From an uncultured Bacilli bacterium (GTDB lineage: Bacteria; Bacillota_I; Bacilli_A; RF39; UBA660), in NCBI GenBank assembly GCA_947626115.1, contig CANQQX010000001.1, positions 10,000-73,999 of the forward strand: DNA of 64,000 bases. Direction: 5' to 3'. A program made the position numbers and the translations under genes. The notes under the pieces were generated by a model that saw only the letters and a list, made by a program, of their open reading frames with translations, searched no databases and was not told the origin of the DNA. This document shows, one piece after another, positions 5,205-51,020 of this stretch (within the stretch, counting starts at the first letter, position 1; each line of letters opens with the position of its first letter).

Positions 5205-5326
5205 CATCTTATAAAGAGCGATGGAGGGACTAGCCCTAGGAAGTCGCACCAACCTATTTAGTTAGGTGGTAATGCTAGATCTATAAGATAACTTTATACT
5301 CAAGGTTATCTTGGGTGTTTTTTTAT
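5205..5326 (+). promoter_or_regulatory. SAM-I (S-box) riboswitch with an intrinsic terminator in the expression platform
   Basis: tcttataaagagcgatggagggactagccctaggaagtcgcaccaacc...ggtggtaatgctagatctataagat matches the S-box consensus (CTTATCAAGAG..GGAGGGAC.GGCCC..GAA..C.GCAACC...GGTGCTAA...AGATAAG). It is followed by the hairpin aagataac/ggttatctt plus T7, which overlaps the 3' strand of P1. Confidence 0.85.
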
Positions 5327-5402: not shown

Positions 5403-6185
5403 ATGATAGAAAAAGTAAATCCAAGTCATCCTGATAAGATAGCTGATAGAATAGCTGGGGCAATAGTTGATTTAGCTTATACTAAATGTGAAAATCCAAA
5501 AGTAGCAGTAGAGATTTTAATTGGGCATGGTGTATGCCATATAATAATGGAAACATCAGAAAAATTTACAAAAGATGAAGTAGAAAAAATATTAAAGAGA
5601 ATTGCGGGTGATATCAAATTAGATTTAAAAGTTTATAAACAAGATGCACATCTAGCCTTAAATCAAGAAAATGATATTAGATGTGGTGATAATGGTATTT
5701 TTAAAGGTGTACCTTTAACTAAAGAAGAAAAGGAGTTATCAAAAATAGCAAGAGAGATATATCAAGAATATCCTTATGATGGTAAATATATTTTAGATCA
5801 AGACAAATTAGTCATATGTCAAAGTAATGCTTTAAAAGAAGATTTAATTAAAAAATATCCTGAAGCTATTATTAATCCATTAGGTAATTGGACAGGTGGC
5901 ATAAATGTTGATAGTGGTGCTACCAATAGAAAATTAGGTTCTGATATGGGACATAGTGTTACTGGTGGAGGACTACACGGTAAAGATTTATCGAAAGCTG
6001 ATGTTTCTCTAAATATTTATGCTTTTAAAAAAGCTCAAAAATTACAAAAAGAAGTAAATATTAGTTGTGCTATTGGTGATACTTTTGTAGATGGTAAGTC
6101 ATATAAGGAAATAGTTGAAGAAACTAGACAATATATTAAAGAAGTTGGTGGCTTTGAAAAATTTGCTGAATGGGGATTATTTTAA
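5403..6185 (+). CDS. metK: Compact S-adenosylmethionine synthetase (MetK)-like protein
   Basis: N-terminal SHPDKIADRIAGAIVD matches the MetK GHPDKIADQISDAVLD motif. CGDNGIF aligns to GAGDQG, and INPLGNW...GGGLHGKDLSKADVS aligns to INPTGRF...GGGAFSGKDPTKVDRS, all in colinear order. The protein is only 260 aa against about 385 aa for MetK. The RBS is aggaaggag. Confidence 0.5.
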   Translation: MIEKVNPSHPDKIADRIAGAIVDLAYTKCENPKVAVEILIGHGVCHIIMETSEKFTKDEVEKILKRIAGDIKLDLKVYKQDAHLALNQENDIRCGDNGIFKGVPLTKEEKELSKIAREIYQEYPYDGKYILDQDKLVICQSNALKEDLIKKYPEAIINPLGNWTGGINVDSGATNRKLGSDMGHSVTGGGLHGKDLSKADVSLNIYAFKKAQKLQKEVNISCAIGDTFVDGKSYKEIVEETRQYIKEVGGFEKFAEWGLF

Positions 6186-33082: not shown

Positions 33083-33988
33083 ATGAAGGATGAATTAGGA
33101 AGAATAGTATTAGATAATTATTTACCACTTAATCATTATACTACTGGTCGTAAAGAGAAAATATGGTTAATGAAAGATGGTCAAACATTTTTATTTAAAA
33201 CTGGTGCAACAAACTACGAAATTTTAGCCGAGTTAATTTCAGAAAAACTAGCTAAACAATGTGGCTTTCCTACGGCTGAATACCGTCTTGCTATATATAA
33301 AGGAAAACTTGGGGTAGTAACACCTTCTTTCTTAAAAAAAGGTGAAATTATTGTTACTGGTGATGAATATATTACTCATGCCAAAGAAATAGCTAAACAA
33401 AATAATATTAATTTGGAATTTAAAGGTAATAGTGTCGAAAATTTATTAAATGCTTGTGCCTTGCAAGATACTAATGCTAATTTATCACAAATATTATTTC
33501 AATTATTAACTATTTATTGCTTTGATTTAACTATTATGGAATCAGATCGTAATTTAACTAATATAAGTATTATTAAAGATTTAAAAGGTAATATTAAAAT
33601 TGCTCCAATATATGATTGTTCTACAATGGCCAAAATGAATACTAATATTGATTCTTTAGTAAATAATATTAGAGATGATAGTCATGTATATAATATAACT
33701 GATAATATAAGTTATGCCTTAAAATTAACAGATGATGATAGTTTAGGTTTTATGAATGAATTTAGTAAATTGTGTGAAATGTTTCCCAAAGAATTATCTA
33801 TTATAATGGCAGGAATTGAAAAAATAGATGTAGAAGAAGCAATTTTAGCAGTTGAAAATGATATTCAAACAGAGCAAAATAATTTTGCTATACCTTTTAA
33901 TGTTAAATATTGGTTAAAGAAAGCTATAACGTATCGAAAAAATGATTTACTAAGTGTTTATCGCAAAAGTATTGCTAAATTAAAATAA
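33083..33988 (+). CDS. HipA C-terminal-domain-like putative Ser/Thr kinase (HipT-like, N-terminal HipA domain absent)
   Basis: ESDRNLTNISII...KIAPIYDCST aligns to the HipA catalytic region GATDGHAKNFSVF...LTPFYDIIS. The upstream EILAELISEKLAKQCGFPTAEYRL aligns to HipA YCLLLAKELGLNVPDAEII. Promoter tggTATAAT and RBS agagga precede the ATG. Confidence 0.5.
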   Translation: MKDELGRIVLDNYLPLNHYTTGRKEKIWLMKDGQTFLFKTGATNYEILAELISEKLAKQCGFPTAEYRLAIYKGKLGVVTPSFLKKGEIIVTGDEYITHAKEIAKQNNINLEFKGNSVENLLNACALQDTNANLSQILFQLLTIYCFDLTIMESDRNLTNISIIKDLKGNIKIAPIYDCSTMAKMNTNIDSLVNNIRDDSHVYNITDNISYALKLTDDDSLGFMNEFSKLCEMFPKELSIIMAGIEKIDVEEAILAVENDIQTEQNNFAIPFNVKYWLKKAITYRKNDLLSVYRKSIAKLK

Positions 33989-36309: not shown

Positions 36310-36407
36310 TTTTTACCACTCCTTGCACACTAATTTTATCATTTATTCTTTAATTAATAAATATTTTTGTTATAATTAATATGTATATATTTGGGGGATT
36401 TTTTATG

Positions 36408-37406
36408 CTAAAAGAAATAAAAATTGAACTTACGAATCGTTGTGCCAGAAATTGTATTCATTGTTCTAGTAGTGCTACTAGTAATTTAGCTAGTGTTAAA
36501 GAACTAGATTTAGATGATGTTAGTAAAATTATAATTGAAGCTAAAGAAATGAGTGTTGATAACATTGTCTTCACTGGTGGTGAGCCATTAATGTATGATG
36601 GCATATTTGCTTTAGTTAGTTTAGTACACAAATTAGGCATGAAATCGACATTATATACATTTGCTTATCGTAATGAAGAAAATTTATTAAAGTATCAAAA
36701 GTTAATTGAATTAGGACTTGATAAAATAGTTTATTCTTTAGCAGATTCTCTATCACCTGAAGAAGATGAATCAACCTACTCATTAGAAGAATTTTTTGAT
36801 AAAATACTTACAAATAGTCAGGCTAAATTAGATTTTCATTATGCCGTATCTAAAGATTCTTTTAATAATTTATTTACTACAATTACTAATACAATTGATA
36901 CATTTAAAGATAAAAGTTATTTTGAAAAAGTTAGTTTACTTCGTTTTGTACCACATGGTAAGGGAAGTAATATGATGAATTTAAGTAAAGAAGAACTATT
37001 GAAAATTAAAGAATTTTATTTGCATTATAAAGATCGAGATAAAATAAGATTAGGTACACCTTGGAATATTTTAAGTATTAAAAATAATCCATGCATTATT
37101 GCTAATGAAATAATGATTATTGGTTTTGATGGTCTTGCTTTTCCATGTGATTCAATTAAATATTTTAAAGGTTTAGGGGTAGCTGGTAATATCAAAGAAG
37201 ATAGTCTTGCTACTATGTATAATTCAGAATATTTTAAAATTTTGAGAGCATATCAAAATACTAGTTGTACTAAATGTGAAGATTATGCTATTTGTAAAAG
37301 TGGTTGCTTAGGTCAAAAAATAATTGCTACTTATGAAGAAGATAGAGATAAAGATAAAGTACTTAGAAGATGTATTCAAAGTCGTGATCCAAAATGTATG
37401 AGGTAA
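36408..37406 (+). CDS. Radical SAM enzyme with C-terminal SPASM domain
   Basis: CARNCIHC (CX3CX2C) at the N-terminus and FTGGEPL. A complete SPASM signature is present: C-X12-G-X4-C, then CTKCEDYAICKSGC (CX2CX5CX3C), then a final Cys. Start taken at MLKEIKIELTNRC. Confidence 0.8.
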   Translation, partial: LKEIKIELTNRCARNCIHCSSSATSNLASVKELDLDDVSKIIIEAKEMSVDNIVFTGGEPLMYDGIFALVSLVHKLGMKSTLYTFAYRNEENLLKYQKLIELGLDKIVYSLADSLSPEEDESTYSLEEFFDKILTNSQAKLDFHYAVSKDSFNNLFTTITNTIDTFKDKSYFEKVSLLRFVPHGKGSNMMNLSKEELLKIKEFYLHYKDRDKIRLGTPWNILSIKNNPCIIANEIMIIGFDGLAFPCDSIKYFKGLGVAGNIKEDSLATMYNSEYFKILRAYQNTSCTKCEDYAICKSGCLGQKIIATYEEDRDKDKVLRRCIQSRDPKCMR

Positions 37407-37407
37407 G

Positions 37408-38364
37408 ATGAAAAAAAGATACGAAGTTTATGACTTATATTGGTATTTTGCTTATGAAAGACAAAATATCTTTTGGCAAAAATTAAAAGGTATGTCAGCT
37501 CCTTGGACAAAAGATCCTATTTTACAAGAATATAAATTTTGTAATAGTTATCGGGTTAATGATCGAGTTAGTCAATATCTTTTAAAAAATGTTATTTATA
37601 ATGGTAAGAAATATAACAATGAAGATATGTTATTTCGGATTATTTTATTTAAATTATTTAATAAAGAAAGTACTTGGGAATTATTACTTAAAAATTTTTC
37701 GGATATAACATTAAGTACTTTTGATAGAGATAAATATTCTAAAGTATTAGAGAGTGCTATTAAAAATGGTGAAAGTATTTATAACGATGCCTATATAAGT
37801 TGTGCAAATAAAGCCTTTGGTTATGATCGAAAACATGATAATCATTTAGCCCTACTTTATAAAATGTTTATAACAGATCGAATGCAAGATAAAATAATTA
37901 AATGTACGAAAATGGAAGAGGCATTTAATATTATTAAAAGTTATCCTTTAATAGGTAATTTTATGGCATATCAACTAGTTACTGATATCAATTATAGTAA
38001 TGTTGTAAATTTTTCGGAAGATGAATTTACTATTGCAGGTCCTGGTTCTATTCGTGGCATAAAGAAATGTTTTATAGATAAAGGAGATTTAAGTAACGAA
38101 GATATTATAAAATACATGTATAATCATCAAGGTGAAGAATTTAAAAGATTACATTTAGATTTTAAAAGAATCGGTAATAGACCATTACAACTAATAGATT
38201 GCCAAAATATCTTTTGTGAACTTGATAAATATTGTCGCGTAAAATTTCCTAATTTAAAATCCAATCGAACTAAAATAAAGAAAAAATATATTCCTAAAAA
38301 AGATAAGATAGAATATGTATATCCAGAAAAGTGGAAAATAAATAATCTTAATGATATAATTTAA
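37408..38364 (+). CDS. Hypothetical protein, translationally coupled to the radical SAM gene
   Basis: 318-aa ORF starting 1 nt after the radical SAM stop. No recognisable motif (KKRYEVYDLYWYFAYERQNIFWQ...FCNSYRVNDRVSQYL). Confidence 0.5.
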   Translation: MKKRYEVYDLYWYFAYERQNIFWQKLKGMSAPWTKDPILQEYKFCNSYRVNDRVSQYLLKNVIYNGKKYNNEDMLFRIILFKLFNKESTWELLLKNFSDITLSTFDRDKYSKVLESAIKNGESIYNDAYISCANKAFGYDRKHDNHLALLYKMFITDRMQDKIIKCTKMEEAFNIIKSYPLIGNFMAYQLVTDINYSNVVNFSEDEFTIAGPGSIRGIKKCFIDKGDLSNEDIIKYMYNHQGEEFKRLHLDFKRIGNRPLQLIDCQNIFCELDKYCRVKFPNLKSNRTKIKKKYIPKKDKIEYVYPEKWKINNLNDII

Positions 38365-38377
38365 ATAGGGTGATATA

Positions 38378-38878
38378 GTGAAAGGTTTGATAATTTATTT
38401 TTCTCATGCGGGAGAAAATTATATGCGAGATGGTATTAAAAATATTACGAAGGGTAATACTGAAATAGTTGCTGAAAAATTGCAAAACCTTACTAATGCC
38501 AATATTTTTAAAGTTGAAAGTATTAAGGAATATCCTTACAATTATCAAGAATGTTGTGATGTGGCTAAAGAAGAATTAAATAAAAAGGAAAGACCTGAAT
38601 TAAAAAAATATTTAAAAGATATTGATAATTATGATGTAATATATATCGGGAGTCCTATTTGGTGGGGAACAATGCCAATGCCACTTTTTAGTGCTTTAGA
38701 AAAATTAAATTGGCAAGGTAAAATAGTAAAACCATTTACCACTCATGAAGGTAGTGGCTTAGGGAATGTGATGAGTGATTTAACTAAAGTTTGTCCTGGT
38801 GCTGAAATAAATAATGGTTTAGCTATTCGTGGTAGTGATGCAGAAGAATCAGAAGAAATGCTTAAAAGTTGGATTTAA
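38378..38878 (+). CDS. Flavodoxin (Flavodoxin_4-like)
   Basis: LIIYFSHAGEN...YDVIYIGSPIWWGTMPMP is the flavodoxin-family WWG motif. GTG start, 13 nt after the previous gene. Confidence 0.7.
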   Translation: MKGLIIYFSHAGENYMRDGIKNITKGNTEIVAEKLQNLTNANIFKVESIKEYPYNYQECCDVAKEELNKKERPELKKYLKDIDNYDVIYIGSPIWWGTMPMPLFSALEKLNWQGKIVKPFTTHEGSGLGNVMSDLTKVCPGAEINNGLAIRGSDAEESEEMLKSWI

Positions 38879-38897: not shown

Positions 38898-39998
38898 ATG
38901 AGTAAAGAAAAGAATTCTAAAAAGAAAGAAAAGAAAAATAAAACTGGATTAATTATAGGTGTAGTTCTAGGAGTAATCGTTTTAGCAGTTGGTGGTTATT
39001 TCTTATATAAATATATTAAATTTAAAACTCCTATAGATGAAGTATGGGGTGAAACTTATTATGTTTATTTAAAGGATAGTCAAAAAGATGAAAAGAAAGC
39101 GACTATTCCCAAAGAAGCTAAGGAAGAAAAAGTAAAATTTGTTAAACCAAAAAAGCAAAAAGATCCCGTCATGGTAGTAACTTATGAAATTAAAGAAGAA
39201 GTACATACTAACATTTATTTTATTGAAGAAAATAAAGTAAATGCTTATGTTTATGAACAACCAACAACTTTAGAATTATTATTTAATATTGAGAAAAATG
39301 AATATAATTACTATATTCATAGTGTTAAAGATACAGAAGAAAGTTATGATTCACTAGATAAACAAATAGAAAATAAAGATAGTGAAGAAGAAAATCAAGA
39401 ACCAGAATATACTTTTCCAAAAAAAGAAGATGGTACTTTAGAAGATTATAAAGAAAAATTTATTGAACCCGAAATTAAAGATGATGGTTTTATTGAATTT
39501 GATCCAAATGGTAGCGAAAGTGATTTAAAAGAGAAAATAGAAGAATCTGTTGATGAATATTTACCACAAGAAGAAGTAGTAACCCCAGAAGTTGAAGAAG
39601 ATGTTAATAAAAAGTTAGAAGATGTTAAAGAATTATTAGAAAAACAAAAAGAAGCTAAATTAGAAGAAATTTTTAATAAATTACAAGGCGTTTGGTATAA
39701 TGAAAAAAATAATGCAATGCTAACTTTTAGCTTAAATGAAGGCAAAAAGCATTTTGCTTCCGGTTGGTTTGCATCTGAAGGATATGCCTCAGGTAATATG
39801 GAAGATATTAAATTAGAAGATGATACTTATTCATTCATTGTTGATGATAAATATCTGAATGAAAAAGTAGATTTTGAAGTTAATATAACTGATTTAGATA
39901 ATAAAACAATTAAATTAGGAGATACAAAATATATTTTTATTAATAAAGATTATAATAAAAGTTATGATATTATAGGTAAAAAGTATTTCGGATATTAA
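38898..39998 (+). CDS. Membrane-anchored acidic protein, hypothetical
   Basis: Lys-rich N-terminus, one TM helix, then a long Glu/Lys-rich extracytoplasmic region. Confidence 0.45.
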   Translation: MSKEKNSKKKEKKNKTGLIIGVVLGVIVLAVGGYFLYKYIKFKTPIDEVWGETYYVYLKDSQKDEKKATIPKEAKEEKVKFVKPKKQKDPVMVVTYEIKEEVHTNIYFIEENKVNAYVYEQPTTLELLFNIEKNEYNYYIHSVKDTEESYDSLDKQIENKDSEEENQEPEYTFPKKEDGTLEDYKEKFIEPEIKDDGFIEFDPNGSESDLKEKIEESVDEYLPQEEVVTPEVEEDVNKKLEDVKELLEKQKEAKLEEIFNKLQGVWYNEKNNAMLTFSLNEGKKHFASGWFASEGYASGNMEDIKLEDDTYSFIVDDKYLNEKVDFEVNITDLDNKTIKLGDTKYIFINKDYNKSYDIIGKKYFGY

Positions 39999-42458: not shown

Positions 42459-43385
42459 ATGAAAATAGGTATTCCAAGAGCATTTTTATATTATAAATAT
42501 CATGTTTTATGGGAAACTTTTTTTGAAGAGTTAGGTATAGAATATATTGTTAGTCCAGAAACTAATAAAGATATTTTAAAAAGAGGGACAATGCATGCCA
42601 TAGATGAATCTTGCTTATCTAGTAAGATTTATACGGGACATGTTGATTATTTAATTGATAAATGTGATTATATTTTTATTCCAAGAGTAGCCACTCTTGG
42701 TAGTCATAAAGATACAGTTTGTTCTAAATTTCAAGCTATCTATGATGTTATTAACAATACTTATAGAGAAAAAAATTTAAAAATATTATATTATAGTATT
42801 GATGTTATTAATAAAGATACAGAAATTAAGGCATTTCTTAAAATGGGTAAATTTTTAGGTAAGAAAAAAGTCCAAATAATGAAGGCATATTATATTGCTA
42901 AACAAGCTGAAAAAACAGCCAAAATGATAGATCTTAATAATCAAAATAATTTATTTAAAAGTGATAAACCAAAAATACTTATTGTATCTCATCCTTATAA
43001 TATTTATGATGAATATGTGGGAAAACCTATTACAAGTACTTTAAAAGAACTGGGATGTGAGCCAATACTTGCTTGTGTTGTGGATGAAAAACAAGCCAGA
43101 GATAGAGCTAAAAAAATTAGTAAAACTTTGCCTTGGACTTTTAATAAAGAATTAGTGGGAGCCATAGATATATATAAAGATAAAGTTGATGGCATAATTT
43201 TAGCATCATCATTTCCTTGTGGACCAGATTCACTTGTTAATGAAATGATTATCAGAAGATTTAAAGGTAAACCAATAATTAATTTAACACTTGATGGTCA
43301 AGAAGGAACAGCTGGTTTAGAAACAAGATTAGAAAGTTTTGTTGATATAATAAAAATTAGAAAGAATGAAGTAGTAAATGAGTAA
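42459..43385 (+). CDS. Acyl-CoA dehydratase activase-related protein (DUF2229-like), first copy
   Basis: Characteristic opening MKIGIPRAFLYYKYHVLWETFFEELGIEYIVS and a C-terminal SSFPCGPDS motif. Confidence 0.6.
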   Translation: MKIGIPRAFLYYKYHVLWETFFEELGIEYIVSPETNKDILKRGTMHAIDESCLSSKIYTGHVDYLIDKCDYIFIPRVATLGSHKDTVCSKFQAIYDVINNTYREKNLKILYYSIDVINKDTEIKAFLKMGKFLGKKKVQIMKAYYIAKQAEKTAKMIDLNNQNNLFKSDKPKILIVSHPYNIYDEYVGKPITSTLKELGCEPILACVVDEKQARDRAKKISKTLPWTFNKELVGAIDIYKDKVDGIILASSFPCGPDSLVNEMIIRRFKGKPIINLTLDGQEGTAGLETRLESFVDIIKIRKNEVVNE

Positions 43386-44445
43386 AGTAAAAGTTAATTT
43401 TCCGAGATTTGGATCTTACAATGTTGCCGTAAGACATATTATTACTAAAGGTTTGGGTTGTGATTATGTTGATTCACCACCAATTACAAAAAAGACTTTA
43501 GAAATAGGAGCTAAAAATTCCCCAGATTTTGTATGTACTCCTTTTAAATACCAATTAGGTGGTTATATTGAAGCAATTGAAGCTGGTGCTAATACCTTAA
43601 TTCAAGTAGGTGGCGCTTGTCGCCTTAATTATTATGGTGAATTACATGAACAAATTTTAAAAGATTTAGGTTATGATGTTAAATTTGTTAATATGGCTAA
43701 TGCTGATTTTGCTAAACCAATAACTTTTTATGAAGAATTTAAAAAAATTACACCTAATTTAAATATTAAAAAGATAACTAGTGCCGTTCTTCTTGCGGTT
43801 AGAATGGTTAAAATAATTGATAAAGTAGAAGATTTTATTCGGGAAAATGTTGGCTTTGAAGTAGTGGATGGTTCTTTTAATAAATTACATCAAGAATTTT
43901 TAGAAGATTTAAAAGAAGTTAATGATAAAAAAGAATTAGCATTAATTTATAAACTTTATATGCGGAAGTTTAAAAATATTGAAATAAATAAACCAAAGAA
44001 TCCCTTAAGAGTAGGAATAGTTGGTGAATATTATACAATAATGGATGAATATAGTAATCATTATATGGAAAAGGAACTTGCTAAAAAAGGTATTATAATT
44101 GAAAGATGGATGAATGTATCAAATACAATATTTATTAATACCGAAAAAGAAACAAAACAAAGTATTAAAAATTATGCTAAATATGATATGGGTGCTACAT
44201 CAATGTATACGATAAAAAAGGCTTTAGATTACGCTAAAGATGGCTTTGATGGTATTATTCATGTTAAAAGTTTTGGCTGTACTCCGGAAATAGATACAAT
44301 GCCAGTATTACAAAGAATTAGTGAAGATTATAAAATACCAATTATTTATTTTAGTTTTGATACACAAACTAGTGATGTTGGTATTAATACGCGAATTGAA
44401 GCTTTCTATGATATGATTATGATGAGAAAGGATGTTAAAGAATAA
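43378..44445 (+). CDS. Acyl-CoA dehydratase activase-related protein (DUF2229-like), second copy
   Basis: Overlaps the previous gene and carries the analogous C-terminal KSFGCTPEID motif. Confidence 0.55.
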   Translation: MSKVKVNFPRFGSYNVAVRHIITKGLGCDYVDSPPITKKTLEIGAKNSPDFVCTPFKYQLGGYIEAIEAGANTLIQVGGACRLNYYGELHEQILKDLGYDVKFVNMANADFAKPITFYEEFKKITPNLNIKKITSAVLLAVRMVKIIDKVEDFIRENVGFEVVDGSFNKLHQEFLEDLKEVNDKKELALIYKLYMRKFKNIEINKPKNPLRVGIVGEYYTIMDEYSNHYMEKELAKKGIIIERWMNVSNTIFINTEKETKQSIKNYAKYDMGATSMYTIKKALDYAKDGFDGIIHVKSFGCTPEIDTMPVLQRISEDYKIPIIYFSFDTQTSDVGINTRIEAFYDMIMMRKDVKE

Positions 44446-45404
44446 TGAAAAAAGCATATATGGGTGTAGATATTGGTTCAATATCTACTAAAGGAATAAT
44501 TATCGATGAAAATAGTAATATACTTGCTAGTGAATATATTTGGACTGAAGGAGACCCAATCGGGGCAGTAAAAAAATTAATTGGTATTTTAAAAGGACAA
44601 TTAAATAGAAAAAAATATAAAGTGGTTGGGGTTGGTACAACAGGTTCTGCTCGTAAACTCATTGGCGTAATGCTAGGAGCAAATATTGTTAAAAATGAAA
44701 TAACTGCTCATGCTATTGGCACATTATCTTTATATCCTGATGTTAAAACTATTTTTGAAATAGGTGGACAAGATTCGAAAATAATCATTATTGATAATGG
44801 TGTAGTAGTTGATTATGCGATGAATACTTTATGTGCTGCTGGTACAGGTTCATTTTTATCAAGTCAGTCTAAAAGATTAGGCCTTGAAGTAGAAGAGTTT
44901 GGCGAGATTGCTTTAAAGAGTAAGAATCCTACTAATATTGCTGCTCGTTGTACAGTTTTTGCCGAAAGTGATTTAGTTCATAAAGCGCAAATTGGTTATA
45001 AAAAAGAAGATATAGTTGCAGGTCTATGCAAAGCGGTTGTTAATAACTATTTAAATAATGTTGGTAAAGGTAAAAAAATAAAACCACCAATTGTTTTCCA
45101 AGGTGGTGTATCTAAAAATGTTGGCGTTATTAAAGCATTTGAAGATGCTACTGGTGAAAAAATCATCGTAGATCCTAATTCGCATTTAATGGGTGCTCTA
45201 GGTGTTGCCCTTCTTTCCCAAAAAGAAAAAGAAATTGATTTTGATTTTGATATTGAAGATGTAACTTTTGAAACTAAGGGCATTGAATGCAAAGGATGCG
45301 CTAATAATTGTGAGCGAATTTGTGTTTATAAAGATGGTGTTTTAATTGATGCTTGGGGTAATAAATGTGATAAAGGGGCAATTAAAGTACCAGCAAAAGT
45401 TTAA
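44445..45404 (+). CDS. CoA-substrate-specific enzyme activase (BadF/BadG/BcrA/BcrD ATPase family)
   Basis: MGVDIGSISTKGIIID actin-like ATPase N-terminus, ATGSARKLIG, and C-terminal Cys residues (CKGCANNCERIC). Confidence 0.7.
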   Translation: MKKAYMGVDIGSISTKGIIIDENSNILASEYIWTEGDPIGAVKKLIGILKGQLNRKKYKVVGVGTTGSARKLIGVMLGANIVKNEITAHAIGTLSLYPDVKTIFEIGGQDSKIIIIDNGVVVDYAMNTLCAAGTGSFLSSQSKRLGLEVEEFGEIALKSKNPTNIAARCTVFAESDLVHKAQIGYKKEDIVAGLCKAVVNNYLNNVGKGKKIKPPIVFQGGVSKNVGVIKAFEDATGEKIIVDPNSHLMGALGVALLSQKEKEIDFDFDIEDVTFETKGIECKGCANNCERICVYKDGVLIDAWGNKCDKGAIKVPAKV

Positions 45405-46819: not shown

Positions 46820-46955
46820 TTAATTCATAATTAATCTTTTTAATTTTGGAAAAATGTGTAAATTTGTCTTTTAAAGGAGAATAACATAGAAAATATTAGC
46901 CCTTTAAAAAAGTAAAAAATTGTTATATAATACGATAACATTACAGGGGTGTAAT

Positions 46956-49319
46956 ATGCAAAAAAATGAAATAATTGAACTTATCAACAAAAAAACTATT
47001 GAAGCAAAGAAAATTATTAATGAAATTAATGAATTAAAACTTATGCTTAAAAACTATGATAACAAAATCACAAATAATTATACAAATGAAGAAAAAATAA
47101 ATATTTTTATGGATTATTTTAAAGGTAGAGATAATGTGTATCCGTATCTTTCTATTGATAAAAAAGATCCTAGCAAAAAGTATTATGTACCAAAATGCGC
47201 TAATGAATGGAATAAAAATGTCTGTAATAAAACTATGAATAAAAAATGTAAAGATTGTAATTATTGGCTTGATAAACCAATTGATAAAGAAGTAATTAGA
47301 AATCATTTATTTAATAATAATCATATTGGTATTTATCCTATGTTAGAAGATGAAACTTGTTATTTTCTTGTTTTTGATTTTGATGATAAGAAAAACGAAA
47401 ATGATATAAAAGAAGATGTACTTGCTTTTGCTAATATATGTGATAAATATAACGTTCCAATTTCAATCGAAAGAAGTAGGTCTGGTCATGGATACCATAT
47501 ATGGATTTTTTTTGAAAATAATATCAAAGCATTAACAGCAAGAAAAATGGGAAGTTTACTATTATCAAAAACAATGGAAATAAGAGATAATTTAAAAATA
47601 AATTCTTTTGATAGAATGTTTCCTAATCAAGATACTATGCCTAAAGGTGGCTATGGCAATTTAATTATGCTTCCTTTTCAAAATGAACCTATGAAGTGTA
47701 ATAACACAGTTTTTTTAGATAGGAACTTTAATGTTTATAATGACCAATATTATTATTTAGCTAAAGTTAAAAAAATGAGTTATGATGAAGTTCTAAGTAT
47801 TATAAAAATATTATCTGAAAGTACAATAGACATTAGTAGTGAAAATATAGAATTAAAAGAAGAAATAAATAAAAAAGAAAAAAATAATTTTGATTTTCCA
47901 AAAAGTATTAATTTAATATTAGATAATATGGTTTATATAGATAAAGCAAATTTAAGTTCAGCAGTTAAAAATTGTTTTAGAAGACTTGCAACATTTGCAA
48001 ATCCAGAATTTTTTAAAAAGCAACGAATGAGAATGTCTGTTCATAATATTCCTATGATAATAGATTGTAGTAAAGAAGATGATAAATATTTGATGCTTCC
48101 AAGAGGAAAATTTGAATATTTATATAATTTATGTAAACAAAATGATATAAAAATGAATATTGTTGATAAAAGAAATAAAGGTAAAAAAATTAATATAAAA
48201 TTTAATGGCAAATTAAGAGAAGACCAACAAGATGCATTAAATGAAATGTTAAAATATGAAAATGGAATACTTGAAGCCCCAACTGGATTTGGCAAAACTG
48301 TTATATGTTGTAAATTAATTGAAGTGAGAAATGTTAATACACTTATTATTACTTTTAATTTATCACTTTTAAAACAATGGAAAGAAAGATTAAAAGAGTT
48401 TTTAAATATTGATGAAGTTGGCCAAATTGGTGATGGAAAAAATACTTTAACAAATAAAATTGATGTAGCAAGTATTAAAGCAATTTATAATGATGGAAAA
48501 TTTAATGATATGGTTAAAAATTATGGAATGATAATTATAGACGAGTGTCATCATTCATCGGCTTATACATATGAAGCTGCCTTGAATATGGTTAATGCTA
48601 AATATGTATATGGTGTATCCGCAACTCCCGAAAAAGAAAATGGACATACACCAATTATTAAAATGCAATGTGGTGATATTAGATATAAAGTTAATATGAA
48701 AGAATATAATAAAAAATTAAATTTAAAAATGAAAGTGTATAATAAAAGTGTTCATTTGAATTTTGTTAATAAAAATGTAACCGATTATAAAATCAATGAA
48801 ATATATGATTTAATATCTAAAGATGTTATAAGAAATGAAGTAGTTATTAAAGATGTGGAAAATGAATTTAAAAGTGGTAAAAATATTCTAGTTTTAACAG
48901 AACGAATTGAACATTTAGAGTATTTGTATGAAAAATTATCTAAAATAACTAACAATATAATTGTATATCGAGGTGGATTAAGTAAAAAGATTTTAAAAAA
49001 ATATGATGAATTAAATGATAACATAAAGAAAAATAATGAAAATAAAATTATAATTGCTACAAGTTCTTGTATTGGTGAAGGATTTGATGATTCTAGTTTG
49101 GAAGTTTTATTTTTAACTATGCCTATATCTAGTATAAATAGAATCGTACAATATACCGGAAGATTACATAGAAAAAATGAAAATAAAAAAGAAATAATTG
49201 TTTATGATTATGTTGATGATAATTTTTCAATGATTAGAAATATGTTTTTAAAAAGAAAGAAAGCATATGAAAAAGTTGGTTATGAAATTATTGAAAATAA
49301 TTGTCAAATGTCATTATAA
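46956..49319 (+). CDS. Fusion protein: N-terminal archaeo-eukaryotic primase-polymerase (AEP/PrimPol-like) domain + C-terminal SF2 DECH-box helicase (ResIII-like)
   Basis: N-terminal half: Cys-rich CANEWNKNVCNKTMNKKCKDCNYW, acidic FLVFDFDD (hhDhD-type motif I) and SRSGHGYHIWIFF (sGxGxH-type motif II), in AEP spacing. C-terminal half: Walker A APTGFGKTV, IIIDECHH (motif II), SATP (motif III) and QYTGRLHR (motif VI). RBS aggggtg before the ATG at 46956; the ORF track starts at 46920. Confidence 0.55.
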   Translation: MQKNEIIELINKKTIEAKKIINEINELKLMLKNYDNKITNNYTNEEKINIFMDYFKGRDNVYPYLSIDKKDPSKKYYVPKCANEWNKNVCNKTMNKKCKDCNYWLDKPIDKEVIRNHLFNNNHIGIYPMLEDETCYFLVFDFDDKKNENDIKEDVLAFANICDKYNVPISIERSRSGHGYHIWIFFENNIKALTARKMGSLLLSKTMEIRDNLKINSFDRMFPNQDTMPKGGYGNLIMLPFQNEPMKCNNTVFLDRNFNVYNDQYYYLAKVKKMSYDEVLSIIKILSESTIDISSENIELKEEINKKEKNNFDFPKSINLILDNMVYIDKANLSSAVKNCFRRLATFANPEFFKKQRMRMSVHNIPMIIDCSKEDDKYLMLPRGKFEYLYNLCKQNDIKMNIVDKRNKGKKINIKFNGKLREDQQDALNEMLKYENGILEAPTGFGKTVICCKLIEVRNVNTLIITFNLSLLKQWKERLKEFLNIDEVGQIGDGKNTLTNKIDVASIKAIYNDGKFNDMVKNYGMIIIDECHHSSAYTYEAALNMVNAKYVYGVSATPEKENGHTPIIKMQCGDIRYKVNMKEYNKKLNLKMKVYNKSVHLNFVNKNVTDYKINEIYDLISKDVIRNEVVIKDVENEFKSGKNILVLTERIEHLEYLYEKLSKITNNIIVYRGGLSKKILKKYDELNDNIKKNNENKIIIATSSCIGEGFDDSSLEVLFLTMPISSINRIVQYTGRLHRKNENKKEIIVYDYVDDNFSMIRNMFLKRKKAYEKVGYEIIENNCQMSL

Positions 49320-49358
49320 TCTTTAAATTTATGGTAAAATAAAAGTAGGGTGACTGCT

Positions 49359-51020
49359 ATGTATAAAAACGATGAAGAATTAAGTAAAATATTAGATGAA
49401 TTATTATTAAACGCAGAAAACGAGTGTGTAGAGTTCAAAAAAGCTGAAAATAATTTTGACGTTGATATTTTAGGCAAATATTTTTCTGCATTGGGTAATG
49501 AGGCAAATTTAAAAAATAAGCAATATTCTTGGATTGTTTTTGGAGTTGATGATAAAACTCACAAATTAACAAATACAAACTTTTACAAAGATAGCAATTT
49601 TAATAAATTAAAAAAGCAAATTTCTGATAATACAACAGATAATATTGGATTTATAGAAATATATGAATTGATAAAAGATAGCAAAAGAGTAATAATGTTT
49701 CAAGTACCAGCGGCTTCGGGAACTCCTATTAATTGGAAAGGGTTTCCTTATGGTAGAAATGGTGAATCTTTAACTTCTTTAACATCAAATAAAATAGAGC
49801 AAATTAAAGCAACAGCAAATTATGATTGGTCAAGACAAGTAATAGAAGATGCAACTATAGATAATCTAGATAAAAAAGCAATTCAAATGGCAAGAGAACA
49901 ATTTAAAATAAAATATAAAGGTAAAAGTATTTCTGATGAAATAGACGATTTATCAGATATTGATTTTTTAAATAAGGCAAAATTGACTTTGAATAATAAA
50001 ATTACAATGGCATGTATGTTATTATTAGGTAATAATGATGATGACTATCTAATGAATGGTTATACACCGAGAATGACTTGGAAATTGTATGATGAATTTA
50101 ATGTTATAGACTATGAACATTTTGGCATTCCTTTTATTGTAAATGTTGAAAAATTAAAAGCAAAGATTAGAAATTTAAGATATAGATATATGGTTAATGA
50201 TAATACATTGTTTCCAAATGAAGTAGATCAATATGATAATTATATTCTTCGGGAATTGATTAATAATTGTATTGTTCATCAAGATTATAAGCTTCGTGGA
50301 AGTATAAATGTTATGGAATTTAAAGATAAACTGATAATAACAAATGAGGGTAATTTTATTCCTGAAACAATTGAAAATGTTTTAAAGGATGGTTTCTCTT
50401 CTCCATATTATAGAAATCAATTTTTGGCTAATGCTATGGTTAATTTAAATATGATTGATACTGTTGGAAGTGGAATAAGAAGAGTATATGATATTCAAAA
50501 GAGAAAATTTTTTCCAATGCCTGATTATGATTTAAGTAGAGATAATCATGTTAAAGTAACTTTATATGGAAAAATTATAGATGAAAAATATAGTAAAATA
50601 TTATTTGAAAAAACAAATTTAGATATAGATAAGGTTATGTTACTTGATAGAGTTCAAAAAAATTATGAAATTACAAAGGAACAATGTGATTATTTAAGAA
50701 AAGATAATTTAATAGAAGGTAGATATCCAAATATTTATATTTCATCTGATATTGCTAAAATAACCGGAAACAAAGAAGAATATGTGTATAATTCCGGATT
50801 AGAAAATGAATTTTATATGGAAATTATTATGAAATATTTGAATGAATATGGTTCAGCAAGTAGAAAAGAGATTGTTGCATTATTGAATGATAAACTTCCT
50901 AAATCATTAGATAATAAGAATAAAATTAATAGAGTAAGATACTTATTAGATGTTCTAAAAAAAGATGGAAAAATTTATAATGATGCAAAATCAGGAGGAT
51001 CATGTTGGAAAGTTAAATGA
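49359..51020 (+). CDS. Schlafen/AlbA_2 + HATPase_c_4 family ATPase (often misannotated as RecG-like), with C-terminal winged-helix
   Basis: N-terminal ENECVEFKKAENNF fits the AlbA_2 (divergent AAA/Schlafen-like) opening. The central FPNEVDQYDNYILRELINNCIVHQDY...IITNEGNFIP fits the HATPase_c_4 pattern. RBS tagggtga before the ATG at 49359; the ORF track starts at 49350. Confidence 0.55.
   Translation: MYKNDEELSKILDELLLNAENECVEFKKAENNFDVDILGKYFSALGNEANLKNKQYSWIVFGVDDKTHKLTNTNFYKDSNFNKLKKQISDNTTDNIGFIEIYELIKDSKRVIMFQVPAASGTPINWKGFPYGRNGESLTSLTSNKIEQIKATANYDWSRQVIEDATIDNLDKKAIQMAREQFKIKYKGKSISDEIDDLSDIDFLNKAKLTLNNKITMACMLLLGNNDDDYLMNGYTPRMTWKLYDEFNVIDYEHFGIPFIVNVEKLKAKIRNLRYRYMVNDNTLFPNEVDQYDNYILRELINNCIVHQDYKLRGSINVMEFKDKLIITNEGNFIPETIENVLKDGFSSPYYRNQFLANAMVNLNMIDTVGSGIRRVYDIQKRKFFPMPDYDLSRDNHVKVTLYGKIIDEKYSKILFEKTNLDIDKVMLLDRVQKNYEITKEQCDYLRKDNLIEGRYPNIYISSDIAKITGNKEEYVYNSGLENEFYMEIIMKYLNEYGSASRKEIVALLNDKLPKSLDNKNKINRVRYLLDVLKKDGKIYNDAKSGGSCWKVK

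Follow-up and report, generated by a model that had tools for sequence, protein, structure and literature searches.

A radical SAM/SPASM enzyme paired with a PF18723 protein in uncultured gut Bacilli: a proposed nucleic-acid base-modification module

The PF18723 partner protein and its phage relatives

All known thymidine-hypermodifying phages carry two protein families of helix-hairpin-helix (HhH) fold. In one of them, clade 2 (PF18724), activity has been demonstrated, whereas the other, PF18723 ("5-hmdU DNA kinase, helical domain", 5-hmdU being 5-hydroxymethyl-2'-deoxyuridine), formerly named clade-1 alpha-glutamyl/putrescinyl-thymine pyrophosphorylase (aGPT-Pplase1), has none demonstrated to date. 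Here we describe a chromosomal PF18723 protein of 318 amino acids (aa), encoded at positions 37,408 to 38,364 (plus strand) of a 64,000-nucleotide stretch of DNA, hereafter the window, from an uncultured Bacilli bacterium (contig CANQQX010000001.1, positions 10,000 to 73,999). Its gene lies immediately downstream of a gene for a radical S-adenosylmethionine (SAM) enzyme with a SPASM domain. Since the radical SAM enzyme stands where the phage family has a kinase, we propose that the pair forms a nucleic-acid base-modification module of uncultured gut Bacilli, in which radical chemistry replaces the phage kinase; we give this proposal roughly an even chance of being correct.

In the M6-like phage LKO4, the PF18723 protein gp17 is encoded directly after a 187-aa P-loop 5-hmdU DNA kinase (PF18748), in a cluster that also holds an amino-acid:DNA transferase (AADT, PF18724), a pyridoxal-phosphate enzyme and a radical SAM enzyme. 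LKO4 gp17 is syntenic with M6 gp55, whose homology was assigned by this synteny, the profile having been tested on the LKO4 counterpart. In phage SP10, kinase and PF18723 protein are fused, the latter forming the C-terminal half of gp186, and in phage LuckyBarnes the PF18723 gene adjoins genes for a thymidylate-synthase-like protein and a glycosyltransferase. As to chemistry, residue C247 of the AADT PaMx11 gp46 is the nucleophile attacking C6 of the flipped pyrimidine and E243 and T244 are metal ligands (PMC11472151); in M6 gp51 and ViI gp247, a Cys and a nearby Glu are essential (PMC8989533). M6 also offers the only precedent for a partnership between a radical SAM enzyme and HhH-fold base-modifying proteins, since its Nalpha-GlyT isomerase, gp53, is a radical SAM enzyme clustered with such proteins and acts on a DNA-borne base (PMC8989533).

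The initial annotation of the locus had described the 318-aa protein as having no recognisable family, which proved false. Its residues 6-284 match positions 2-280 of the 281-position PF18723 model (HMUDK_hel) with 354.3 bits (cut-off 25; E 6.4e-106). This is its sole Pfam match at E <= 0.01, neither PF18724 nor PF00730 (HhH-GPD) being found, and the profile match marks it as a full-length, stand-alone member of the family. Sequence search detected no solved structure. An AlphaFold2 model built on 70 diverse PF18723 members is compact and confident (predicted local distance difference test, pLDDT, 95.7) and shows an all-helical fold of HhH type; the calculated pI is 9.2. A Foldseek search, suggested along with the initial annotation, was run and revealed no orphan fold. 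The top match in the PDB was 8Z2N, the 5-phosphomethyl-2'-deoxyuridine (5-PmdU) glycinyltransferase PaMx11 gp46 (probability 1.0), followed by HhH-GPD glycosylases, with weak matches to AlkA, OGG and MagIII (probability 0.1-0.35). Among viral models in BFVD, the SP10 5-hmdU DNA kinase gp186 (template modelling score, TM, 0.81) and a PhiW-14 protein (TM 0.63) were retrieved with probability 1.0, AADTs matching more weakly (TM 0.42-0.50). Identity as an HhH-GPD glycosylase was rejected, as the GPGxxRG hairpin (residues 211-217) is present but no Asp follows at the canonical distance and PF00730 does not match.

Compared with the phage clade-1 proteins (M6 gp55, the C-terminal half of SP10 gp186, PhiW-14 C9DG43), the 318-aa protein belongs to the same family over its full length, with TM values of 0.63-0.81, and shares their invariant residues, including the FCE motif that holds Cys270 (codon 38,215-38,217). 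Among the 70 diverse members, C270, E271 and K274 vary hardly or not at all. A tblastn search of phage genomes returned 500 records, mostly ViI-like and M6-like thymidine-hypermodifying phages, in which the homologues are 23-31% identical to the 318-aa protein; one match is annotated as "aGPT-Pplase1 domain-containing protein". Whereas the phage proteins lie beside, or are fused to, the PF18748 kinase and occur together with dUMP hydroxymethylase, the window protein is kinase-less, chromosomal and paired with a radical SAM enzyme. No Pfam match to the PF18748 kinase or to thymidylate synthase was found in the open reading frames (ORFs) scanned around the cassette (26.9-51.0 kb of the window), and neither recurs among 91 related loci.

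With PaMx11 gp46, its best solved structural match, the protein has the HhH-containing helical fold in common. A profile comparison by hhalign against 23 AADT sequences gave a moderate match (E 4e-4, probability 33%) that pairs R258, D264, Q266, N267, C270 and P281 with AADT residues R235, E241, E243, T244, C247 and P258, so that the Cys nucleophile, the preceding Arg and the following Pro are aligned. The 318-aa protein differs in matching no clade-2 model, in carrying Gln/Asn in place of the Glu/Thr metal ligands and in reaching a TM of only 0.42-0.45; moreover, AADTs need kinase-made 5-phosphomethyl-dU, while its own locus has no kinase.

Within the gut Bacilli, PF18723 proteins form a clade with pairwise identities of 70-99% (median 89%) and 147 invariant columns, the closest relative outside it being 56% identical. 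The gut protein is a new, divergent cellular member of the family. Seven Cys residues are conserved in the clade, and three of them (C265, C270 and C276) sit on one helix. Elsewhere in the family, every fusion joins PF18723 to a DNA or nucleotide enzyme (TMP-kinase-like, MazG plus MazG_C, GT1, or NADAR plus N6/N4 DNA methylase). Distant members are encoded beside DUF1643 and MazG_C in a cyanobacterium, beside genes for a P-loop protein, ThsB-TIR and a metallophosphatase, and in a large phage.

The conserved pair and its variable third gene

The radical SAM ORF extends from 36,381 to 37,406 (plus strand, 341 aa from the first ATG). This span, given in the initial annotation, is open throughout, but the gene most likely starts at the second ATG (36,405-37,406, 333 aa), because its homologues, 333-334 aa long, begin with MLKE and because GGGGGA stands six nucleotides (nt) 5' of that codon. 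The stop codon TAA (37,404-37,406) and the ATG of the PF18723 gene (37,408) are separated by a single G, and a GAGG is embedded in the 3' end of the radical SAM coding sequence; the two genes are translationally coupled. After a gap of 13 nt follows a flavodoxin gene with a GTG start (38,378-38,878, plus strand; PF12682, Flavodoxin_4, 85.9 bits, cut-off 24), which is probably co-transcribed with the pair; the next gap downstream measures 19 nt. The co-directional arrangement of the three ORFs, the 1-nt coupling and the flavodoxin type had all been proposed in the initial annotation and were confirmed by the ORF call and Pfam. Upstream, 95 nt of A+T-rich intergenic sequence (36,310-36,404) separate the radical SAM gene from a divergent DUF218 gene and presumably contain its promoter and ribosome-binding site; no small ORF or riboswitch was found there, nor any Rfam element upstream of the cassette in the window and 12 related loci. 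The G+C content of the region is 25%.

Searching with the radical SAM protein, we collected 87 related loci (80 from metagenomes and 7 others), and adjacency was scored in those 77 that extend at least 300 nt downstream. In every one (77/77) a PF18723 gene lies directly 3' of the radical SAM gene, a few nt apart, and a radical SAM gene without this partner was found at no locus. By sequence, the cassette flanks group into 28 clusters upstream and 24 downstream; where neighbours carry Pfam labels, the contexts are wholly different from one another, and some adjoin recombinase or mobilisation genes. When the ORFs of 91 loci were clustered down to a length of 70 aa, no third recurrent family emerged, the next commonest occurring in 10 loci. 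The cassette is present in hundreds of gut-metagenome contigs and, as far as sampled, is confined to uncultured low-G+C gut Bacilli. Although PF18723 orthologues without a radical SAM neighbour exist in other genomes, an adjacency retained at a few nt in all scorable loci across at least 24 flank clusters, with no radical SAM gene found alone, effectively refutes a chance association of two unrelated genes.

The flavodoxin behaves differently. The closest relatives of the window locus are three rabbit-gut metagenome-assembled genomes of "uncultured Bacilli" (L001, L002 and L003), 93-95% identical, and the pair is kept in all three. In L001 and L002 the flavodoxin gene is cleanly absent and a gene for a 366-aa protein comes directly after the PF18723 gene, while in L003 an unrelated 201-aa ORF fills the flavodoxin slot; the alignment shows clean presence or absence of a gene of about 520 bp. 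Only one of the 87 loci has a homologue of the flavodoxin in the vicinity of the pair. The three-gene unit assumed in the initial annotation is therefore not conserved: the conserved unit is the radical SAM-PF18723 pair, and the flavodoxin is a strain-variable passenger rather than a dedicated partner. The 366-aa protein (38,898-39,998, plus strand) is acidic (pI 4.7), has one N-terminal hydrophobic segment and no Pfam match, and was found only in the window and these three relatives.

These data bear directly on the pathway originally proposed, in which a metabolite or free nucleotide would be processed by all three gene products, with the flavodoxin as dedicated reductant and the 318-aa protein as small-molecule partner. 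Flavodoxins are physiological reductants of many radical SAM enzymes, and the co-directional genes with gaps of 1 and 13 nt would suit such a pathway. So would the fusions of PF18723 to MazG and TMP-kinase-like domains, which fit mononucleotide substrates, and several of the nearest folds of the radical SAM model (DesII, BlsE, MoaA and viperin), which act on nucleotides or sugar nucleotides. These fold matches are not specific, however (TM about 0.4), both the fold of the partner and its nearest relative of solved structure belong to DNA-acting, base-flipping enzymes, and the flavodoxin is missing from the nearest relatives and from 86 of the 87 loci. We regard the three-gene pathway as quite improbable.

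Solo PF18723 orthologues, 79-87% identical to the paired ones and without an adjacent radical SAM gene, occur in housekeeping contexts unrelated to one another, among them by the rpmG-secE-nusG-rplK operon together with a gene for an OGG glycosylase, after a tRNA_bind gene, and near P-type ATPases and ABC transporters. In a distance tree they interleave with the paired copies. Their existence implies that PF18723 has no strict need of a radical SAM partner, unless this is encoded elsewhere in the genome. No alignment column was found that discriminates paired from solo proteins, and no consistent partner gene of the solo copies was found. In single cases, an HD-domain YfbR-like 5'-deoxynucleotidase is encoded upstream of a solo gene (L008:3403-4065) and a convergent OGG/HhH-GPD glycosylase beside another (L010:7154-8008), both of these functions belonging to nucleotide metabolism or DNA repair. 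Comparison between lineages gives about 80% identity for the PF18723 protein in cases where the radical SAM enzyme reaches about 65%.

In at least 20 related loci (for example L018:2098-2235, L019:6978-7115, L026:956-1090 and L100:2350-2490), the stop codon of PF18723 is immediately followed by a conserved non-coding element of about 135 nt that has hairpins and an intrinsic terminator of its own; the window lacks it. The element is also found at sites apart from the cassette, often by a minus-strand tRNA gene, and displays low covariation. No Rfam family matched it at gathering score, the best being SSRC34_2 (34 bits against 48). The element may be a small RNA or a dispersed repeat.

The radical SAM/SPASM enzyme and the proposed chemistry

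In the numbering of the 341-aa ORF, the radical SAM enzyme carries the CX3CX2C motif CARNCIHC at residues 21-28 and the CX2CX5CX3C motif CTKCEDYAICKSGC at residues 296-309. The seven SPASM cysteines are C238, C256, C296, C299, C305, C309 and C331, and an eighth C-terminal Cys is C339. C256 is preceded by GX4 (G251X4C256), the first spacing of 17 residues being slightly longer than in the canonical CX9-15GX4C. All 11 cysteines are invariant in an alignment of 20 homologues, and Pfam scores exceed their cut-offs for both Radical_SAM (PF04055, 55.4 bits against 29.5) and SPASM (PF13186, 33.8 bits against 21.5). The cysteine motifs read from the sequence in the initial annotation are thus real, and by motif and profile the protein is assigned to the SPASM subgroup of the radical SAM superfamily. 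The eight invariant C-terminal cysteines could fully ligate two auxiliary clusters, for which a role in electron transfer would fit.

Placement in a named subfamily of the TIGRFAM/SPASM type did not succeed, as the NCBIfam equivalogs reached 30-61 bits against cut-offs of 180-650. The family reached by protein search is well defined, with members 62-69% identical. Matches to PDB sequences were at best E 1e-5, and the AlphaFold2 model is moderate (pLDDT 62), with a good core and an unresolved SPASM portion; fold search with it retrieved PqqE, DesII, SkfB, BlsE, MoaA, HydE and viperin. With PqqE, anSME, AhbD, MftC, sactisynthases, BlsE and MoaA the enzyme has CX3CX2C and the seven-Cys SPASM in common, and with PqqE, BlsE and MoaA a partial TIM-barrel core. 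A viperin (pVip) identity was rejected, because NCBIfam NF038283 gave 32 bits against a cut-off of 180 and a SPASM domain is present; the PADLOC pVip model matched the radical SAM core alone, with 40 bits. Among 50,697 phage records, tblastn found only two generic matches to the enzyme, and no similarity to SP10 gp185 was detected; homology to the phage hypermodification radical SAM enzymes beyond superfamily level was thus not detectable. M6 gp53, too, is of a different kind: it is an SPL-like, photolyase-like protein of 480 aa without a SPASM match, whereas the window enzyme is a compact SPASM protein.

As the initial annotation had noted, nothing at the locus resembles a pathway for ribosomally synthesised peptides with post-translational modifications (RiPPs). 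Scanning for ORFs of 18-80 aa within 800 nt of the cassette in 86 loci, we found no precursor-like ORF that is universal or rich in Cys or Gly. No larger ORF (at least 70 aa) recurs either, and no peptidase or transporter accompanies the pair. An N-terminal RiPP recognition element (RRE) is excluded, because the cluster motif begins 12 residues after the real start, and Pfam detects no PqqD-like domain. A RiPP pathway with a hidden precursor was therefore rejected. Unlike SPASM/twitch enzymes such as PqqE, anSME and sactisynthases, the window enzyme has no RRE or peptide substrate, and its partner is of nucleic-acid type. The earlier suggestion of an uncharacterised pathway with a non-RiPP substrate holds in this respect, and the nucleotide it listed among the options is plausible, although the partner is not family-less and the flavodoxin is not dedicated. 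Probably it is the partner protein that handles the substrate, a nucleotide or a nucleic acid being likely. The partner's family, fold, basic charge, fusions and phage contexts point to a pyrimidine in DNA, a nucleotide or RNA appearing less likely.

Most characterised SPASM enzymes modify peptides or proteins, and the PF18723 protein itself might be the target. In such a case, comparable to anSME with sulfatases or QhpD with QhpC, the radical SAM enzyme would install a thioether crosslink, formylglycine or another Cys-derived group in its partner and thereby create or tune the active site. The translational coupling and constant adjacency of the genes, the seven clade-conserved cysteines of the partner with C265, C270 and C276 in one helix, and the eight C-terminal cysteines of the enzyme, which, in the manner of anSME, could serve to ligate both auxiliary clusters completely, agree with this view. 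However, solo orthologues keep the same cysteines and are separated from the paired ones by no column, the partner's compact and confident fold exposes no leader-like segment, the enzyme lacks an RRE, and the NCBIfam models of anSME and sactisynthase type remain far below their cut-offs. We consider such a maturase function distinctly unlikely.

For the base-modification module that we prefer, the following mechanism may be envisaged. The PF18723 protein, an HhH, DNA-glycosylase-like enzyme paralogous to the phage AADTs, would most likely bind nucleic acid, DNA being favoured, and extrude a pyrimidine. By analogy with clade 2, the thiolate of Cys270 would add to C6 and permit chemistry at C5 or its substituent. 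In phages the P-loop kinase activates 5-hydroxymethyluracil; here the activating role would be taken by the radical SAM enzyme, whose 5'-deoxyadenosyl radical could, anaerobically, bring about C-H activation or redox chemistry on the flipped-out base or on the group at its C5. Two Cys-ligated auxiliary clusters would carry the electron transfer, and the flavodoxin could donate electrons in this strain while being dispensable to the unit. What is observed is that the genes are paired, that the partner has the stated family and fold, and that Cys, Arg and Pro positions are conserved; the nucleic acid as substrate, the flipping of the base, the attack of Cys on C6 and the radical SAM reaction are inferred. 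In its most specific form, a kinase- and oxygen-independent modification of pyrimidines in the host's own DNA (or RNA), with the SPASM enzyme activating C5 or the C5-methyl group of a flipped base held via C6 by PF18723, the scheme is tentative and, taken in all its details, unlikely.

Several observations weigh against base modification by this pair. To our knowledge, no biochemical activity has been demonstrated for any PF18723 (clade-1) protein, and we know of no SPASM enzyme acting on nucleic acid. In M6, gp55 could be left out of the reconstituted reaction (PMC8989533). Gln/Asn stand in place of the AADT metal ligands Glu/Thr, the profile-profile match to AADTs is only moderate, and no dUMP hydroxymethylase or kinase was seen at the locus. 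The solo orthologues and their interleaving with paired copies speak against an obligate partnership on the side of PF18723, and the MazG and TMP-kinase fusions are equally compatible with free nucleotides instead of polymer. Since PF18723 activity is not demonstrated, no well-characterised enzyme accounts for the operon.

Genomic surroundings, possible defence role and significance

Further genes of the window were inspected. A HipA-like kinase gene (33,083-33,988, plus strand; HipA_C 37.8 bits, PADLOC PDC-M03A E 2e-28) lies 2.4 kb upstream. About 8 kb downstream of the cassette (46,920-51,020, plus strand), a conflict-system-like pair encodes a 799-aa fusion of a TOTE-type archaeo-eukaryotic primase with a ResIII/DEAD helicase and, next to it, a Schlafen AlbA_2/HATPase_c_4 protein (556 aa). 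In between, a three-gene cluster (42,459-45,404, plus strand) that is similar to a 2-hydroxyacyl-CoA dehydratase/activase set encodes a DUF2229 protein with a CoA-enzyme activase domain, an HGD-D-like protein and a BcrAD/BadFG ATPase. A SAM riboswitch (RF00162, 64.6 bits; 5,206-5,289, plus strand) precedes the ORF at 5,403-6,185.

The same chemistry could also be directed at foreign rather than self nucleic acid. In an anti-phage system, PF18723 would recognise modified (5-hydroxymethylated or hypermodified) phage pyrimidines or nucleotides, and the radical SAM enzyme would damage, crosslink or convert them or, in the way of viperins, make a toxic nucleotide analogue; target and purpose would differ from those of the module proposed above. 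Distant PF18723 members lie by ThsB-TIR and metallophosphatase genes with a P-loop protein, or by MazG_C, and DefensePredictor lists aGPT-Pplase, MazG and MazG-C as predicted, unvalidated defence domains (PMC13092281). The many contexts of the cassette, some near recombinase or mobilisation genes, together with the HipA-like, TOTE-type and Schlafen-type genes around it in the window, would be in line with defence, as would the weak resemblance of the radical SAM core to pVip models. This resemblance is generic, however, the viperin equivalog being far below its cut-off, and neither PADLOC nor other defence models match the PF18723 protein, so that a known defence system was rejected. No effector nuclease or toxin is linked to the pair, solo copies reside beside ribosomal-protein operons, and fast-evolving defence genes do not usually show conservation as strong as that of the PF18723 protein, both within its clade and relative to the radical SAM enzyme. 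A defence function is possible but, on this evidence, improbable.

Both families of the proposed base-modification module are known, but the obligate cassette combining them was not found described: we found no report of a radical SAM/SPASM-PF18723 pairing, although the papers Iyer 2013 and Burroughs 2015 might mention it. The cassette is a minimal two-gene system in which the activity of PF18723 could be found, and in it this family is joined with a SPASM radical SAM enzyme, of a class for which no action on nucleic acids is known. It could also explain the persistence of clade-1 proteins in phage clusters.

Should the pair serve as a defence module instead, it would represent a new mechanism aimed at base-modified phages. 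If, as we propose, the pair yields a modified base in the DNA or RNA of abundant uncultured Bacilli of the human and animal gut, this would amount to a new mark, epigenetic or epitranscriptomic, and to a new type of radical SAM reaction. Under the most specific form of the scheme, the radical SAM protein would be the first nucleic-acid-directed SPASM enzyme and its partner the first PF18723 protein with an assigned activity, and cellular genomes would possess a functional counterpart, working anaerobically, of TET/JBP-type or phage thymidine-hypermodification chemistry.

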